A DNA stretch of 64,000 nt, taken from assembly GCA_963806035.1 (NCBI GenBank), contig CAWDWO010000023.1:60521-124520 (forward strand), read 5' to 3'. The stretch's first letter is position 1. Each line of letters begins with the position of its first letter. Below are positions 39,001-54,000 of this stretch, in pieces. The stretch comes from Candidatus Krumholzibacteriota bacterium. GTDB taxonomy: Bacteria > Krumholzibacteriota > Krumholzibacteriia > JAJRXK01. The position numbers were made by a program.

Positions 39001-42000
39001 ACTCCTTTCGTCTGCCCGTTCCGGTGCGGGTCTACACCGCGGAGGGTGACAGCAGCGACTACTGGGTGTGGACGGATGACCCCACCGTGAACACGACCCT
39101 CTCCGTCGGCGGCGAAGTGGCCGCGGTCAAAGTCGATCCTGACGAGGATTTCCTCATCTATCGGGATACTGCGCCTGTCTCCGCTACTGCCGGGGGTATC
39201 TCCTTCGAGGCGGGTTATCCCAATCCCTACCTGGCCTCCTCCGGTGCACTCTTCAAGGTGCCCGCCTTCGCGCAGCGGGATGCTTCCATGAGCGTGACGG
39301 TGTACGACGTCTCCGGGCGCAGGCTCAGAGTTCTGCGCTCGGGCATGGTGGCGCCGGGGCCGGTCACTCTCAGCTGGGATGGACGGGACGGCGACGGGAG
39401 GCCGGTATCGAGTGGACTTTATTTCCTGCGCATCAAGACCGAGGCCGGCTCCAAGAGCCAGCGCGTGATCCTCGTGCGCTGAGCTCGAGCCACGATCGGC
39501 TTAGAAGGGCAGATCGCCGTCTTCGGGGAGAATCTCGAGCTTCGCGTAGTGAGCAAGCACGCGCTTGCGCCCGCTCTCGCCGAATTCGATGGTGAGCCTG
39601 GTGAGTTCACCGAAGCCCTCGACTTCAGCGATGGTTCCCTCGCCGAGAGTCTGATGGCGAACACGCTGTCCGACCTCGAAGACGAGTTCCTCCTGGCTCA
39701 GCTCGTGGTCCTGAAAGCCGTGGTCGTTCTGCGCTTGTGCCCGCTGCTTGGCCCTGCTCTTGAGAAAGGCCTCGGCTCCGTAGGGGCTCGCGCCTGGCGC
39801 GGCGGAGGGCTTGCTCGTGGAAGCGCGTCGGCGCTTGGACGCCCCAAAACTCGGCGCTCCACTCTCCACATCGCCAAAGAGGCGGCGGGTTCTGCTGCGC
39901 CGGTTCCACAACAGATCCTCGTCCTGGCGGACGCGCTCTCCCTTCTCGATCACGATCTCGGCCGGAAGCTCGCTCAAAAAACGGCTGGGATACGCGGGCT
40001 CTGAGCCTCCAAAGCGGCGGCGGAAAGCGGCCGCGCTCAAGAATACTCGCTGCCGCGCGCGGGTCAGCGCCACATAGAAGAGCCGTCTCTCCTCCTCCAG
40101 CTTGTCTTCTTCCTCGATGCTGTTGGCGTGCGGAAGGAGATTCTCCTCACAACCCGCCACGAACACCACGGGGTACTCGAGCCCCTTGGCGTTGTGCATG
40201 GTCATCAGGGTCACCATGTCGCCGGCCGCGTCCATCCGATCGACTTCGGCCAGGAGCGCGACCGACTCGAGAAAATCGAAGAGCCGTCCCTCATCGCTCT
40301 CCGCCACGAAAGCTTCCGCCGCGTGGAGCAGCTCGCGCACGTTCTCCTCGCGGTCTTCGGCGGTGGAAGGATCGTCGTCGTGCAACCATTTGATGTAGTT
40401 CGTGCTCTGAAAAACCTGTTCGACCACTTTCGCGGCGTCCAAGTTTTCCGCTGCGCGGCGCAGAGTGGTCATGAGCGAAACGAACTTCTCGATGCGCGCA
40501 GCCCCCTTGCCGCAGACCCTGGCCAGAAGCTCGGGATGCAGCTCGCAGAACCGCAGGGGTGAGAGATTGTGCGTGGCGGCGGCCTGGAAAAGCCTCTCCA
40601 CGCTCTTCTTGCCGATCCCCCGGCGCGGCACGTTGATCACGCGCTCCAAACTCACCTGGTCTGCGGGATTGATGGCCAGCTTGAGGTAGGCCAGGACGTC
40701 GCGCACTTCGCGCCGTTCGTAAAAGCGCGTGCCTCCGATGATTTGGTAGGGAAGTCCAGCGCGGCGCAAAGCATCTTCCAGAGCGCGGCTCTGCGCGTTC
40801 GTGCGATACAGGATGACGCAGTCCTGGCGACGGTATCCCTCTTCGTTCTTCAGCTGCTGGATGCGGCTCTCGATTGCCGCCCCCTCGCCCTCCTCGTCGT
40901 CCACCCACCACAACTCGAGGGCCTGACCGTCGGCCGCCTCGGTCCAGAGCTTCTTGCCGCGGCGCTTGCGGTTGTGGGCTATGACTTCGTTGGCGGCCCG
41001 CAGGATGATCCCGGTGGAGCGATAGTTCTGTTCGAGGCGCACGACCTTGGCTCCGGGAAAATATTGCTCGAAGGAGAGCATATTCTCGACCGTCGCACCG
41101 CGCCAGGAATAGATGGCCTGATCGTCGTCCCCCACCGCGAAGAGATTCTCCCACTGGGCGCTGAGGGCCTTGGTCAGGATGAGCTGCAGCGGGTTGGTGT
41201 CCTGGAACTCGTCGACCAACACGTAGTGGAAACGTTCCGCATAGCGCTCCTGGACGTCCTTGTGGGTCTCGAAGAGCTCGACGGTGCGCGCGATGAGATC
41301 GTCGAAATCCATGGCCTGATTCGAGCGCAAACTGCGCTCGTACTCCGCGTAGATCTGCGCCATGCGCTCTTCCCAACCCGTCATCGCGCGTTCGCTCGCC
41401 TCGGCGGGCTTCACCGATTGATTCTTGAAATGGCTGATGGCGGTAGCGACGGCCCGCGGCGTGAATTCCTTGGGGTCGGCATGGCGTTTCTTCAGCACCG
41501 CCTTGATCACGGCGCGGCTGTCGTCCGCGTCGTAGATGCTGAACTCGCGCGAGTATCCCAGGCGCTCCGCCTCTCTGCGCAAGATGCGAACCCCTGTGGC
41601 GTGGAAAGTGCCGATCCAGGCCTGCCTGCCCTCGTGGGTCAGAGCTTCCACGCGCTCGCGCATCTCGCGCGCCGCCTTGTTGGTGAAGGTGAAGGCCAGG
41701 ATGTTCTCCGGCCGGACACCCTCTTCCTTGATGAGGTAGGCGATGCGAGTGGTAAGCACGCGCGTCTTGCCACTGCCGGCCCCGGCAATGACCAGCATGG
41801 GGCCCTGGGTATTCACGACCGCCTGGCGTTGTTCTGGGTTGAGACCTTGAAGCATCGGAGGAACTAAAACTCCGGACCTATCGAGAAGGTGAACTGCATG
41901 TCACCGTAAGTGCGGGCGAAATCTGTCTTCCATGCCCAGTCGAACTTGAACGGGAGGCCGAGGAAACTCACGCGCATCCCCAGCCCATAATCGGCTTTGA

Positions 42001-51000: not shown

Positions 51001-54000
51001 CCCAACAGCAGGAGAGCGAGGATGAGCGAGAAAACGACCGTGCAAAAATGATTTCGACGCGAGGCGTCCAAGACCTTCTATTGCTCCTGGGAACCCGAGG
51101 CCCGTGCTGCGGCTAGCTTCTAGCCAAAGTCCTTCCGCTGTTATAGGTTCCAACTGCAGATGAGGACAACCATGAAAGTTCCGCCGTCATACCGGTTTCG
51201 ATTCGCTCTTCTGGCGTGGGCCCTCATCCTGGGTCTTTCGGCGTGCGCCGAGAAGCGGCAAAAAGAGCTCGACCCCGAAGACCGGCCCCTGCTGGAGCAA
51301 CTGCTGCGGCTCTCTGAAATTCGCATTCTCGCCGAACAGTACCCGGACAGCGCCCAGGCCCAACTCGACAGCTTCCTGGCCCATAGCGACACCACCGGCC
51401 TCAGCCAGCGGGTCCATGAACTCTGGAATGAGCCGAGTAGGGGTCAGTTCCTCTTCGAAGCCCTGCAAGATAGCCTTCGCGCCCCGCTGAAGTCGATCCG
51501 CACTTCCCGCGACGAGCGCCCCCCCACGACGCCCAACCCCGAGACAGCCACCCCGAGGACGGCCAAACCGAAACCCTGAGGATTGCGAGCTCGTCCGGGC
51601 TTCAGCTGGCCACTTTGATGACGTCCATGGTGATGACGTAGGCCATGAGCAGGAGGAGCAGGACGAAACCCACCTGGGTGGCCACGGCCTGAATGCGCTC
51701 ATCCGCTCGCCGGCGGGTGATCAACTCGTAGGTGATGAACGCGGCGTGACCCCCATCCAGAACGGGGATCGGCAGCAGGTTCAAGAGGAAGAGATTGACG
51801 CTGAAGAGGGCCAGGAATCCCAGGAGGTAGTCGAAACCCCACTCCACCATCTGGCCGGCGAACTGCGCGATGCGCACCGGTCCGCTCACCGCGTCGCGGG
51901 AGGCACCGCCGGTCACCAGCACTCCGAGGAAGGTGGCGGTCTGATCCACGGTTCTCCAGGTGGCCTGAGCTCCCAGCTTGGAAGCTTCCACGAAACTCAC
52001 CGCACGGCGCTCGCGGTAGGGTTCGTAGTAGATGCGTCCCACGGTCTCGACGTTCTTGTAATCGACCGGCACCTCGGCCGCCTCCGGCACCACCGTTGCG
52101 TGATAGGGCTTCCCGTCCCGGGTCCAGGCGATCTCCAGCGGCACGCCGATGCTTTCATTCACTTTCTTGGCGATTTGATCGTAGTCCTTCATCGGCTCGC
52201 CGTTGATGCTCACGATCAGGTCGCCTCGACGCAGCCCCGCGCGCCACGCCGCTCCATCCTTCTTCACCGTGCCCACGCGCGTGTCGTGGCGGTAGTCCAT
52301 TCCGATGCGCCAGCGCCCGCTCGCCTCATCCTTGACCGGAACGAGTTCAGCCGTCTTGGTTTCGCCCTGACGCTCGTAGCTGATCTTCAAGGGAAGGCGG
52401 TCGGCCTGAGTCTCTTGCACGATCTCGTCCAGCACGCCGTCCCAGGTCTTCACTGCGTGACCCGCCACACTCAGGATCTCATCGCCCTTCTGCAGGCCGG
52501 CCTTGGCCGCGGGACCGTCCGCGACCACTTTGCCCACTTCGGTGACCGGAATCACCGGAACCCCTTCCACCCACACGAGGCCCACCGTCACCACCAAAGC
52601 GAGAAGCAGGTTGGCCACGGGACCCGCGACCACGATCGCCAGCCGCTGCCAGGGAGACTTGCTGGAGAAGTACTGCTCGGGCGGAATCACCGCGCCCTCA
52701 CTGTCGACCTCACCCCCCGTCCCGGCGTCCTGGATCTCCTCCATCGCACCCTCGCCGGCCATCTTGACGTAACCGCCAAAGGGCACCGCGGACAGGGCGT
52801 ACTCGGTTCCGCGCCAGCGCTTGCGAAGGAGCTTGGGACCAAAACCCACGGAGAAGGTCTTCACGTAGACCCCGACCGACTTGGCCACGAGGAAGTGTCC
52901 GCCCTCGTGGATCACGACGACCACTCCGAGAACGAAAACGAAAGCCAGGATCTGCTCGAGATTCATGCCACCACCGTGTGCTGTACCTTTCCGGCCGGTC
53001 CGCGCGGGCTCGGGCCGTCAGGCTGTGATCCAGGAACGCACCAGGCGGCGCGTCGCGGTGTCTCTTTCCAAAGCTTCGGGTACCGAGCCCGCGGCGGGGC
53101 CGCTCAGGCTCTCTAGCGCCCGCTCGATGAGAGGAGCAATCTCCACAAAGGATAGCTCCCCCCGCAAGAGTCCTGCCACTGCCTCCTCGTTGGCGGCGTT
53201 GAGGACCAGGGGGGCGCAGCCGCCGGCCTCCGCCGCCGCGCGGGCCAGCCCGAGACAGGGATAGCGGCGCGCATCCGGCGCCTCGAAATCCAAACTTCCC
53301 ATGCTCAAGGGATCCAGGGCAGGAAAGTCGCTGGCCCAGTGCTCGCCCCCGCTGAGGGCATACAGGATGGGAAGCCGCATGTCCGGGGTTCCCAGCTGGG
53401 CCAAAAAAGCGCCATCGCGCAACTCGATCATACTGTGGACGATCGACTGGCGGTGCAGGACGACCTGAACGTCTCGTAAAGGTAGACCAAAGAGCAACTT
53501 AGCCTCGATCACTTCGAGGCCTTTGTTCATCATGGTGGCGCTGTCGACAGTGATCTTGGGACCCATGTCCCAGTTGGGATGATCGAGGACTTGCTCCAGG
53601 CTCACATCCTTGAGCTCCTCGGGCGGGGTGTCCCGGAACGGACCGCCGGAGGCGGTGAGCCAGATCCGCCGCAGCTCGGAGGGACCAGCGGCGCGCAGGC
53701 ACTGTGCGATGGCCGAATGTTCGCTGTCCACCGGCCAGAGGGTCGCCTTCCCGCGCCGGGCCGCATCCAGGACGAGTTCTCCCCCCACCACGAGGGCTTC
53801 CTTGTTGGCCAGCGCCACGTCCAGCCCGCGGCGGAGAGCTTCCACCGTGGGCTGCAGGCCCGCTGCTCCCACCAGTCCGTTCACCACGAGGGCATCGGGA
53901 GGGGCTTCGGCGAGAAGCTCGAGGATGCCCGCACCGCCCGCCGCGGCCAGACCTTTCCGCAGATCGGGATTCGCTTGGCTGAAGGCCTCGCGCGCCTTCT

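Follow-up and report, generated by a model that had tools for sequence, protein, structure and literature searches.

The 'WD40-like Omp85' subfamily was described by Heinz and Lithgow in 2014 (PMC4104836). Its main text speaks of the propeller alone and puts forward a BamA-BamB-like fusion; Table S3 lists, for cluster members, matches to BamA/TamA barrels (4K3B/4C00), matches to TolB (2W8B/2IVZ) and, in 17 rows, matches to the aminopeptidase 1Z5H. A 2024 paper (PMC11358297) ascribes 'divergent WD40 and peptidase domains' to the subfamily. As late as 2024 it was still termed uncharacterised.

Two other systems invite comparison. PlpD, a patatin-like Omp85 of Pseudomonas aeruginosa, has an N-terminal enzyme domain on an Omp85 barrel that is exclusively periplasmic according to Hanson et al. 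2024 (PMC11116518), and thereby provides a precedent for an Omp85 tether. BepA is a periplasmic HExxH zinc protease which, according to PMC13067283, acts on stalled OMPs at the outer-membrane assembly site. Here we analyse a gene for a 1082-aa protein. With a probability of about 0.55, we favour the joint reading that it belongs to the catalogued, unstudied WD40-Omp85 subfamily of the Omp85/TpsB superfamily and acts as an outer-membrane-tethered, propeller-gated periplasmic peptidase, encoded in a row of envelope-biogenesis genes.

Results

The window, that is, the whole 64-kb stretch of DNA analysed, contains a row of seven same-strand genes, cdsA-dxr-rseP-bamA-like-tamB2-(1082-aa gene)-pcrA, the first three forming the block 51602..55142:

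54192-55142, minus strand: cdsA (Pfam CTP_transf_1), upstream in the same row
53018-54187, minus strand: dxr, DXP reductoisomerase, upstream in the same row
51602-52966, minus strand: rseP (Peptidase_M50 and PDZ), upstream in the same row
49014..51071, minus strand: BamA-like Omp85 gene, 685 aa, three POTRA stretches and Omp85 (Pfam)
45146..49009, minus strand: tamB paralogue ('TamB2'), 1287 aa, Pfam TamB, N-terminal membrane anchor
41864..45112, minus strand: peptidase-propeller-Omp85 gene (P0001), 1082 aa from ORF and translation, of the 'WD40-like Omp85' subfamily
39501..41855, minus strand: pcrA/uvrD helicase (Pfam UvrD; NCBIfam PcrA, 843 bits), 8 nt downstream of the 1082-aa gene

The three central ORFs (41864-45112, 45146-49135 and 49014-51071, all minus strand) are real and lie where an earlier note on this DNA had placed them. 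TamB2 was taken to start at the ATG at 49009, within the full ORF 45146-49135; with this start, the coordinates give the claimed gaps of 4 nt between the bamA-like gene and tamB2 and of 33 nt between tamB2 and the 1082-aa gene. Several relatives (e.g. loci L005, L019, L024 and L027) likewise have a helicase ORF homologous to pcrA just 3' of the gene. The window further codes for an oligopeptide transporter of the OPT type and for an M1 peptidase whose C-terminal domain is of the secretion type.

As in TAM (TamA-TamB) and TamL-TamB, the two upstream neighbours follow the tamA-tamB order: first an Omp85 protein with three POTRA stretches, then a member of the TamB family. The Omp85 protein matched Pfam Omp85 at E 2.8e-42, and its POTRA domains were confirmed, though in three stretches and not the two noted earlier. 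In contrast to the TAM and TamL-TamB components, it scores below the equivalog cut-offs for TamA, TamL and BamA (NCBIfam BamA 262.5 bits versus 297, TamA 89 versus 625); the genome's BamA (770 aa) is on another contig. The TamB domain claimed for the middle gene was recovered at its C-terminus (E 1.5e-34). A second TamB elsewhere in the genome scores higher, and TamB2 falls into a separate clade from this canonical copy (support 100/99 and 95/96). Since the genome holds a separate canonical TamA-TamB pair, the locus represents a second TAM-like module. Thus, of the earlier description as the third gene of a tamA-tamB operon, the order Omp85-tamB-gene stands, but the canonical pair lies elsewhere. 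Described TAM operons have no counterpart of the third gene: Heinz et al. 2015 (PMC4494059) contains no mention of WD40.

AlphaFold2 (AF2) modelling of the 1082-aa protein (mean pLDDT 86, pTM 0.85), together with its sequence, gave the domain order signal peptide, zinc peptidase, one propeller, linker and barrel:

45029..45112, minus strand: signal peptide, aa 1-28 (MKTR..., hydrophobic core, VQA followed by RNK), read from the translation
44243..45028, minus strand: gluzincin-type zinc metallopeptidase domain, aa 29 to about 290 (model, Foldseek, VIA-align, sub-threshold Pfam)
44687..44701, minus strand: HELVH zinc-binding/catalytic motif, aa 138-142 (translation and family alignment)
44585-44611, minus strand: WFAEGAAEF, aa 168-176, with the likely third zinc ligand inside (family conservation)
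43313..44227, minus strand: single six-bladed TolB/PD40-type beta-propeller, aa about 296-600 (model, Foldseek, profile search)
42998..43312, minus strand: linker, aa about 601-705, low-complexity (P/E/S/Q/G/H-rich), probably disordered, without POTRA
41867..42997, minus strand: Omp85-type 16-strand beta-barrel, aa about 706-1082, last residue Phe (Pfam, Foldseek, strand count)

The earlier note had read the N-terminal part as '~770 aa of PD40/Tricorn-like propellers'. The model instead shows a mixed alpha/beta peptidase region (aa 30 to about 290), one propeller (~296-600), the linker and the barrel (from ~709), so that the supposed Tricorn-type propellers give way to a single TolB-type propeller plus a peptidase domain. 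The N-terminal helix (2-21) was modelled at low confidence, and the family consensus shows AxA ahead of a conserved FGKNKVQY.

The propeller consists of six groups of four strands (Pfam PD40 E 1.1e-13, best stretch 303-324). The six-bladed PD40 propeller of TolB, from the Tol-Pal system, is its best match in both structure (1crz, Foldseek E 2.4e-11) and sequence (7mx5, PDB profile search, E 2.3e-26). The NCBIfam TolB score of 107 bits remains below the cut-off of 343; no TolB N-terminal domain was seen in the protein, and the genome's own TolB candidate (320 bits) is encoded elsewhere. Linker residues 640-701 have a pLDDT under 50, and the region shows no consensus across the family alignment. 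The reported combination of PD40 and Omp85 without POTRA was reproduced by Pfam, with no POTRA in the 1082-aa protein even at E <= 0.1.

The barrel (Pfam Omp85 E 4.3e-13 at 778-1082), whose 16 strands were counted on the AF2 model, matched BamA/TamA barrels in Foldseek (e.g. 6qgw, TMt 0.64; 8us4, TMt 0.73). It is very divergent from the other Omp85 proteins of the same genome (pairwise blastp E > 0.1). The family conserves the RG motif in the long barrel loop (951-953), FxDxG (1011-1015) and the Phe at the C-terminus; L951/R952/G953 and F1011/D1013/G1015 are at least 90% conserved or invariant among members. Judged from these residues, the barrel looks native.

The N-terminus of an Omp85 barrel faces the periplasm, as established for BamA and TamA. 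The peptidase and propeller precede the barrel, so they should lie on its periplasmic side. This speaks against a surface-displayed peptidase, for which the barrel would export the N-terminal part through or beside itself in a type V-like manner and external proteins would be digested for nutrition. Such display would fit the long disordered linker that separates the passenger-like part from the barrel in the AF2 model, and likewise the OPT transporter and the M1 peptidase of the window. But the neighbours of the gene serve envelope biogenesis and not nutrient uptake, and Pfam detects no T9SS C-terminal domain in the protein. The enzyme-plus-barrel layout also recalls an early proposal for PlpD, whose enzyme domain proved to be exclusively periplasmic (PMC11116518). 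PlpD is a homodimer whose subunits carry a lipase domain and one POTRA, whereas the 1082-aa protein combines a peptidase and a propeller with a ~100-aa linker and no POTRA. Surface display therefore appears quite improbable.

Modelled separately, the peptidase domain reached a pLDDT of 85. Foldseek returned M9 collagenase peptidase domains first (best 7zbv, E 1.4e-5, TM 0.58), followed by M1 aminopeptidases, and VIA-align gave Z scores of 16.6 (7wss), 16.1 (7bb8), 14.8 (8sw0) and 14.6 (1z1w). The catalytic fold thus matches gluzincins, namely the M9 collagenase peptidase domain, M30 lugdulysin and M1 enzymes including tricorn-interacting factor F3, at Z 14.6-16.6 over 222-238 residues, although with only 12-16% sequence identity and with Pfam scores below the cut-offs (Peptidase_M9 20.6 versus 26 bits, Peptidase_MA_2 17.7 versus 32.4). 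HExxH and a downstream Glu are shared with gluzincins. By contrast, the spacing from H142 to E171 (29 residues) differs, and the collagen-binding or M1 accessory domains of the gluzincins compared are missing from the protein. The helix with the downstream Glu is of the 'WxxEG' type.

All 121 aligned members, which reach down to about 30% identity and include the 1082-aa copy, share H138, E139, H142, W168, E171, G172 and E175 without exception. The same seven residues are invariant in a second alignment of 107 rows (A1), as are Y213 and Q217 (107/107). The remark that this copy lacks Peptidase_MA_2 is hence correct at the Pfam threshold only; HELVH, E171, G172 and E175 are all in place. From its sequence, the domain looks like an active gluzincin zinc peptidase.

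This conservation bears on the idea of an assembly scaffold without enzyme activity, in which the propeller would recruit partners, the barrel would be an insertase and the peptidase fold would serve for binding alone. A BamA/BamB-fusion analogy was proposed by Heinz and Lithgow (PMC4104836), the barrel keeps the Omp85 hallmark motifs, and the neighbourhood is of the rseP-bamA type. However, an invariant HExxH...E set is difficult to account for unless the domain is catalytic, in Foldseek the propeller resembles six-bladed TolB and not BamB, and the barrel is far from the genome's other Omp85 proteins. We regard a pure scaffold as very unlikely.

Homologues of the 1082-aa protein numbered 1,016 at E <= 1e-5 (among 7,999 scored candidates), in line with the large family claimed earlier. 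The fusion is the rule, with at least 1,016 full-length relatives versus 57 shorter matches that are mostly contig-end fragments. Relatives also occur in Calditrichota (L031, L037 and L064), and one accession of the 2014 catalogue is presumably from Caldithrix. The proteins catalogued there have the same three-part build without POTRA, with no structural difference. A distinct POTRA-less Omp85 subfamily was thus rightly recognised in the earlier note, but its architecture was not new. Neither linkage to tamB nor active-site conservation was found mentioned in the main text of PMC4104836.

The gene is present in 177 of 201 sampled genomes of the window's phylum (E <= 1e-10), with no match in the other 24. 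Across the phylum it keeps its place right behind tamB2: the latter lies directly upstream on the same strand, with its 3' end -4 to 397 nt away, in 96 of the 99 phylum genomes with both coordinates listed, a ratio that overstates the evidence because related genomes are not independent samples. The link to the BamA-like/TamB pair extends well beyond this genome, as tamB is also directly upstream in 12 distant loci (Eisenbacteria, Krumholzibacteriota, Fibrobacteraceae and UBP1), nine of which have the bamA-like gene as well. Another 13 loci, labelled Ignavibacteriota/Bacteroidota, show the order tamB-RNase R-gene. Both tamB-linked groups fall into different clades of the family tree.

The protein could accordingly be the obligatory third component of a TAM variant made of three genes. 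Its POTRA-less barrel would dock to TamB2 or join the BamA-like protein in one complex, and its peptidase-propeller part would be a substrate-capture arm. The tight gaps and the recurrent position behind tamB would suit such a subunit. So would the second arrangement, in which the gene is the Omp85 gene nearest to a tamB of another clade, and the second tamB, beside its own Omp85 neighbour, in the genomes checked that have a linked tamB. Yet POTRA is the TamA domain reported to contact TamB, and the protein has none. Among the phylum genomes without a match, four of those inspected keep cdsA/dxr-rseP-bamA-like-tamB-pcrA with the gene cleanly absent, and at three Eisenbacteria loci rseP is followed directly by the gene, with neither bamA-like gene nor tamB. 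No tamB is found upstream at 32 of 51 distant loci with an upstream flank of more than 7 kb. In Zixibacteria, where the gene comes after EPSP synthase (19 loci), TamBs grouping with the linked clade (support 95/96) have an Omp85 gene of their own as partner, away from this gene. An obligatory three-gene variant is therefore unlikely; because each module exists without the other, the protein would be at most an accessory of the TAM-like module.

Discussion

This type of protein was catalogued in 2014, and there is no bench study of any member; we infer topology, activity and substrate. In the preferred reading of a tethered periplasmic peptidase, a Sec signal peptide would export the protein and the C-terminal 16-strand barrel would sit in the outer membrane. 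By analogy with PlpD, a flexible tether of ~100 residues would keep the peptidase, packed beside the TolB-like propeller, within the periplasm. The propeller may serve as gate or substrate platform, as in propeller-coupled peptidases, opening the zinc site to unfolded chains or peptides only.

The work of such an enzyme would resemble that of BepA at BAM. The likeness is functional, with no homology claimed: BepA belongs to M48, differs in family and fold, and is a separate soluble protein with TPR instead of a propeller. An M48 peptidase gene is present in the same genome, so a BepA-like job may already be filled.

The conserved position behind tamB2 suggests a functional association with the second TAM-like trans-envelope module. 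The earlier note had assigned a capture or quality-control role to the N-terminal part, and this is still the most plausible reading. The likely task of the protein would be housekeeping by proteolysis on the inner side of the outer membrane, where it would clear envelope proteins or peptides that are unfolded or stalled.

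Results

Three genes on the reverse strand of the window follow one another closely:

49014..51071, minus strand: BamA-like Omp85 gene, an ORF of 685 aa
45146..49135, minus strand: middle ORF (tamB2, a tamB paralogue); likely start at ATG 49009, giving 1287 aa that begin MWVKTT and contain a hydrophobic anchor
41864..45112, minus strand: gene of P0001, the peptidase-propeller-Omp85 protein, an ORF of 1082 aa

With these starts, the gaps of 4 nt and 33 nt between the three genes claimed in the earlier note were reproduced. Pfam analysis placed rseP, dxr and cdsA upstream of the BamA-like gene on the same strand, and a PcrA/UvrD helicase gene of the same row lies 8 nt downstream of the P0001 gene. 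Since same-strand neighbours were identified on both sides, the row reads cdsA-dxr-rseP-bamA-like-tamB-(P0001 gene)-pcrA, the first part of which resembles the rseP-bamA envelope cluster of E. coli. A scan of positions 39000-55500 gave one promoter-like and three terminator-like sites, no more than in shuffled sequences, and none of them falls between the three genes. In the 530 nt that separate rseP from the BamA-like gene (51072-51601), the sole ORF is one of 171 aa (51187-51702) that has no Pfam match and overlaps the end of rseP; a terminator-like hairpin is located at 51284-51270. Positions 41800-51100 of the window are represented in six listed sequencing runs, all of them DNA metagenomes and none of them RNA.

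Most of the domain list of the earlier note stood (PD40 and Omp85 in P0001, which lacks POTRA; TamB in the middle product; POTRA and Omp85 in the first). The product of the first gene carries three POTRA stretches and an Omp85 domain (Pfam, E 2.8e-42). It fails the NCBIfam equivalogs for BamA (TIGR03303, 262.5 versus 297.15), TamA (89.4 versus 625) and TamL (82.8 versus 400), and it fits the "BamA-like" class with one to three POTRA domains, additional to BamA, as described by Heinz & Lithgow 2014 (PMC4104836). The middle product has a TamB domain with E 1.5e-34 (PF04357, 120.3 bits versus a cut-off of 22.4). Its C-terminal TamB/DUF490 domain, its length of 1287 aa and the hydrophobic N-terminus read from the translation mark it as a TamB, while it stays below the NCBIfam autotransporter-assembly TamB equivalog (63.7 versus 825 bits).

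An AlphaFold2 model of P0001, built from a 107-sequence alignment (mean pLDDT 86, pTM 0.85), begins with the helix of a signal peptide, followed by an alpha/beta domain of mixed type (aa 30 to ~290), a single propeller with four strands in each of its six blades (aa ~296-600), a linker with pLDDT below 50 at aa 640-701 and a barrel for which we counted 16 strands (aa ~709-1078) and a long loop (938-976). Pfam found PD40 (E 1.1e-13, 51.2 bits, best stretch aa 303-324) and Omp85 (PF01103, E 4.3e-13, 49.9 bits versus a cut-off of 24, aa 778-1082). No POTRA match was obtained with Pfam at E <= 0.1, and no POTRA fold was present among the elements of the model. Foldseek searches with the whole model returned TolB (1crz, E 2.4e-11) and also BamA/TamA barrels. 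The "~770 aa of Tricorn-like propellers" of the earlier note were therefore wrong: the model shows a single six-bladed propeller and a separate alpha/beta domain. Tricorn protease combines tandem six- and seven-bladed propellers with a PDZ domain and a serine-protease core, whereas P0001 has one six-bladed propeller; moreover, a profile search of PDB sequences reached E 2.3e-26 for TolB but only E 0.016-0.021 for tricorn protease, and neither PDZ nor S41 was matched in Pfam. P0001 thus does not fit the tricorn type.

Of the solved barrels, chain A of PDB entry 9ccg, which is 675 aa long and named "POTRA domain-containing protein", came closest in the same profile search (E 5.6e-13), ahead of BamA (8.5e-5) and TamA (2.3e-4); our literature search found no paper describing this entry. 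Aligned members are invariant or at least 90% conserved at L951/R952/G953, at F1011/D1013/G1015 and at the C-terminal F1082. Positions 951-953 and 1011-1015 coincide with the Omp85 loop-6 RG(Y/F/W) and strand-13 FxDxG motifs. With 16 strands, a long loop 6, both motifs and a C-terminal aromatic residue, the barrel has the traits of the Omp85 superfamily, and it is very divergent from the six other Omp85 genes of the genome (pairwise blastp E > 0.1).

Further propeller and peptidase genes were seen in the window. A 635-aa protein rich in PD40 and DPPIV_N propeller repeats (56747-58654, plus strand; PD40 E 1.2e-34) belongs to the many PD40 proteins that the genome encodes, with 30 matches to the TolB model genome-wide. 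An M1-family peptidase with a C-terminal FlgD_ig domain (37305-39482, plus strand) and a 277-aa protein with FlgD_ig and Por_Secre_tail (61467-62300, minus strand) suggest that the genome encodes cargo of type IX secretion.

The N-terminal domain of P0001, folded alone (pLDDT 85), was best matched by M9 collagenase peptidase domains in Foldseek (7zbv, E 1.4e-5, TM 0.58), followed by M1 aminopeptidases. VIA-align gave Z-scores of 16.6 for Vibrio collagenase, 16.1 for the M30 peptidase lugdulysin, 14.8 for puromycin-sensitive aminopeptidase and 14.6 for tricorn-interacting factor F3 (1z1w). An M9 collagenase was rejected: Peptidase_M9 scored below the Pfam threshold (20.6 versus 26 bits), identity was 13-16%, and of the activator-peptidase unit of these enzymes solely the peptidase half was matched. 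Within the domain lie the motifs HELVH (aa 138-142) and WFAEGAAEF (aa 168-176), that is, HExxH and a downstream Glu as in gluzincins of clan MA(E), with E171 and E175 as candidate third zinc ligands. Each of H138, E139, H142, W168, E171, G172 and E175 is invariant in all 121 sequences (P0001 and its 120 best database relatives). The earlier note had stated that this copy lacks Peptidase_MA_2. Because the catalytic residues are invariant throughout, P0001 included, this holds at the Pfam threshold only (PF13485, 17.7 versus a gathering threshold of 32.4 bits); domain and catalytic residue set are both present. A PF13485 match is precomputed for many relatives, and the family alignment showed the domain to be homologous along its whole length. 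Since the zinc-peptidase site is complete, P0001 is probably an enzyme tethered to the outer membrane, and that it serves as a non-catalytic scaffold is very improbable.

The segment GGFSE (aa 111-115, 44768-44782) is near-invariant as well, with G111, G112, F113 and E115 in at least 90% of members, and lies in the model on the strand that precedes the HExxH helix. It is reminiscent of GxMEN, the exopeptidase motif known from M1 aminopeptidases, and may point to a mode of substrate binding like theirs.

The architecture itself is no discovery. The ten Omp85/TpsB subfamilies of Heinz & Lithgow 2014 (PMC4104836) include a "WD40-Omp85" or "WD40-like" one; the main text describes its TolB-like propeller and compares the whole protein to a BamA-BamB fusion. 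For this cluster, rows of Table S3 give barrel matches to 4K3B/4C00, TolB matches to 2W8B/2IVZ and, in 17 rows, an aminopeptidase match to 1Z5H. P0001 shares the C-terminal Omp85 barrel (Pfam, and Foldseek to BamA/TamA), the N-terminal TolB-like propeller in place of POTRA (TolB being the top match) and the aminopeptidase-like gluzincin domain (F3 1z1w, Z 14.6; M1/M9 folds). Later papers add little: a 2016 Borrelia paper merely lists WD40-Omp85, a 2024 Leptospira paper mentions "divergent WD40 and peptidase domains" (PMC11358297), and Hanson et al. 2024 write that the WD40-like subfamily has "not been well characterized" (PMC11116518). By domain architecture, P0001 is a further member of this catalogued and unstudied subfamily.

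Of 7999 candidates scored in the full-length search with P0001, 1016 reached E <= 1e-5; the best 120 of these measure 663-1174 aa, and nearly all span the whole query. As possible stand-alone peptidase-propeller forms, no more than 57 shorter proteins matched the N-terminal part at E <= 1e-10, mostly labelled partial or on short contigs, with a few on long contigs (P0131, P0150, P0152 and P0161). The fusion to a barrel is thus the rule. Among one-genome-per-species contigs, 504 of 600 candidate stretches encoded a relative. The 80 loci kept came from Eisenbacteria, Zixibacteria, Krumholzibacteriota, Fibrobacteraceae, Ignavibacteriota, Calditrichota (with full-length relatives), Bacteroidota, KSB1, Neomarinimicrobiota and Gemmatimonadota. 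Within the phylum of the window, matches at E <= 1e-10 were found in 177 of 201 sampled genomes and in 112 of the 125 high-quality ones, although some of these, with E between ~1e-11 and 1e-14, probably represent no more than other proteins with a propeller or a barrel; the 24 genomes without a match all belong to one family, f5. The P0001-type Omp85 is a single-copy protein of most sampled genomes of the phylum and widespread in the FCB group and neighbouring phyla.

The genome has seven Omp85 and two TamB matches. A 770-aa BamA with multiple POTRA domains is encoded on another contig, and a canonical TAM locus lies on contig C14 (4981-9924, L002), where a 594-aa TamA with POTRA_TamA_1 is followed by a TamB that is read as a pair of neighbouring ORFs (616 aa, 6762-8612; 434 aa, 8620-9924), which may reflect a frameshift, an assembly error or a genuine split. 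Because the canonical pair sits elsewhere, the bamA-like/tamB2 pair of the window represents a second, TAM-like module.

The earlier note had seen the link to tamB in this genome only; it extends well beyond. The TamB2 C-terminus matched 195 of the 201 genomes of the phylum sample. In 96 of the 99 genomes listed in both searches, for which coordinates could be paired, tamB2 ended -4 to 397 nt upstream of the P0001 match on the same strand; the gap was 690 nt in one, and the two matches lay on different contigs in two. Among the 80 distant loci, tamB was directly upstream in 12 (Eisenbacteria, Krumholzibacteriota, Fibrobacteraceae and UBP1), nine of which also had the BamA-like gene while three were cut by contig ends. 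Another 13, labelled Ignavibacteriota or Bacteroidota, showed the same-strand row tamB (~1500 aa)-RNase R-gene. Where the upstream flank exceeded 7 kb (n=51), tamB was found upstream in 19 loci (8 window-type and 11 RNase R type) and was missing in 32.

FastTree analysis of 78 family members placed the two tamB-linked groups in different starred clades. In an IQ-TREE analysis of 32 TamB C-termini, two unlinked TamBs of Zixibacteria joined the window-type linked ones (support 95/96). The window-type TamBs were separated both from the second, canonical copies found in this genome and in an Eisenbacteria genome (100/99) and from the Ignavibacteriota-type linked clade (99/99); deep branches were without resolution (63/24). 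Forcing all 26 linked TamBs into one clade, as a single TamB paralogue would require, cost 9.27 log-likelihood units (p-AU 0.039), a weak rejection, as the group was named after the tree had been seen. The association is therefore real and recurrent, and either several origins or frequent losses are probable.

Clades without tamB linkage have neighbours of their own. EPSP synthase is the upstream gene in 19 mostly Zixibacteria loci, and six loci of Zixibacteria type carry the gene of a LonB-like protease on the opposite strand. Directly downstream, a GWxTD-domain protein is encoded in KSB1, Cytophagia and Gemmatimonadota loci and a DsbD-type thiol-disulfide transporter in another clade (loci with recurrent downstream neighbours: L015, L038, L041, L049, L059, L062; L029, L032, L034, L043, L045, L071).

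The link to tamB is not obligatory. Four f5 genomes (L110-L113) keep dxr/rseP-bamA-like-tamB2-pcrA with the P0001-type gene cleanly missing between tamB2 and pcrA, three Eisenbacteria loci have the P0001-type gene directly after dxr-rseP without bamA-like or tamB, and in Zixibacteria a TamB-Omp85 pair occupies a separate site. P0001 is hence unlikely to be an obligatory TAM subunit. Complex prediction with the barrel (aa 700-1082) and the TamB2 C-terminus (aa 940-1287) scored 0.00 in two runs without controls, which carries no weight for or against an interaction. No paper linking WD40-like Omp85 proteins to tamB was found in open-licence PMC and bioRxiv, and "WD40" has 0 occurrences in Heinz et al. 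2015 on TAM evolution (PMC4494059). As far as these searches reach, it is unreported that the gene keeps a conserved, though not indispensable, position after a tamB paralogue.

Discussion

Outer-membrane biogenesis has Omp85 proteins at its core, yet several of their catalogued subfamilies are not known to have been the subject of experiments. For P0001, the domain order, the conservation of zinc-peptidase and barrel motifs, the lack of POTRA and the neighbourhood are established. The observation of the earlier note is partly confirmed and its interpretation partly supported.

We propose that P0001 would be exported by Sec and its barrel inserted in the outer membrane, with a periplasmic N-terminal unit, because Omp85 proteins have their N-termini on the periplasmic side. 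A precedent is PlpD, a patatin-like Omp85 whose enzyme domain was shown to be periplasmic by Hanson et al. 2024 (PMC11116518). Against this background, display of P0001 on the cell surface is quite improbable. The propeller might serve as a gate or as a platform for substrates, as an analogy with peptidases that carry PD40 propellers suggests; such enzymes are among the PDB sequence matches of P0001 (the S9 peptidase 8wt1 and acyl-peptide hydrolases). The protein could carry out housekeeping proteolysis on the periplasmic side of the outer membrane, much like BepA at BAM (PMC13067283). The likeness concerns the proposed mode of action, not relatedness to BepA. Absence of BepA was dropped as an argument for a replacement because the genome has an M48 peptidase. 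We give this whole proposal, from Sec export to BepA-like housekeeping, a probability of roughly 0.55.

A more specific reading, which we regard as rather unlikely, is that P0001 serves specifically as an accessory to a second trans-envelope machine built on TamB2, with the barrel holding a zinc peptidase where the TamB bridge meets the outer membrane. It would have been recruited at least twice, as bamA-like-tamB2-gene in Krumholzibacteriota-like, Eisenbacteria and Fibrobacterota lineages and as tamB-rnr-gene in Ignavibacteriota, and the peptidase would clear stalled clients or process the TamB bridge itself. If this were true, a proteolytic quality-control station would be built into an Omp85 protein. 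The conserved place behind a paralogous tamB offers a testable hypothesis, namely that proteolytic housekeeping may be coupled to a TAM-like machine.
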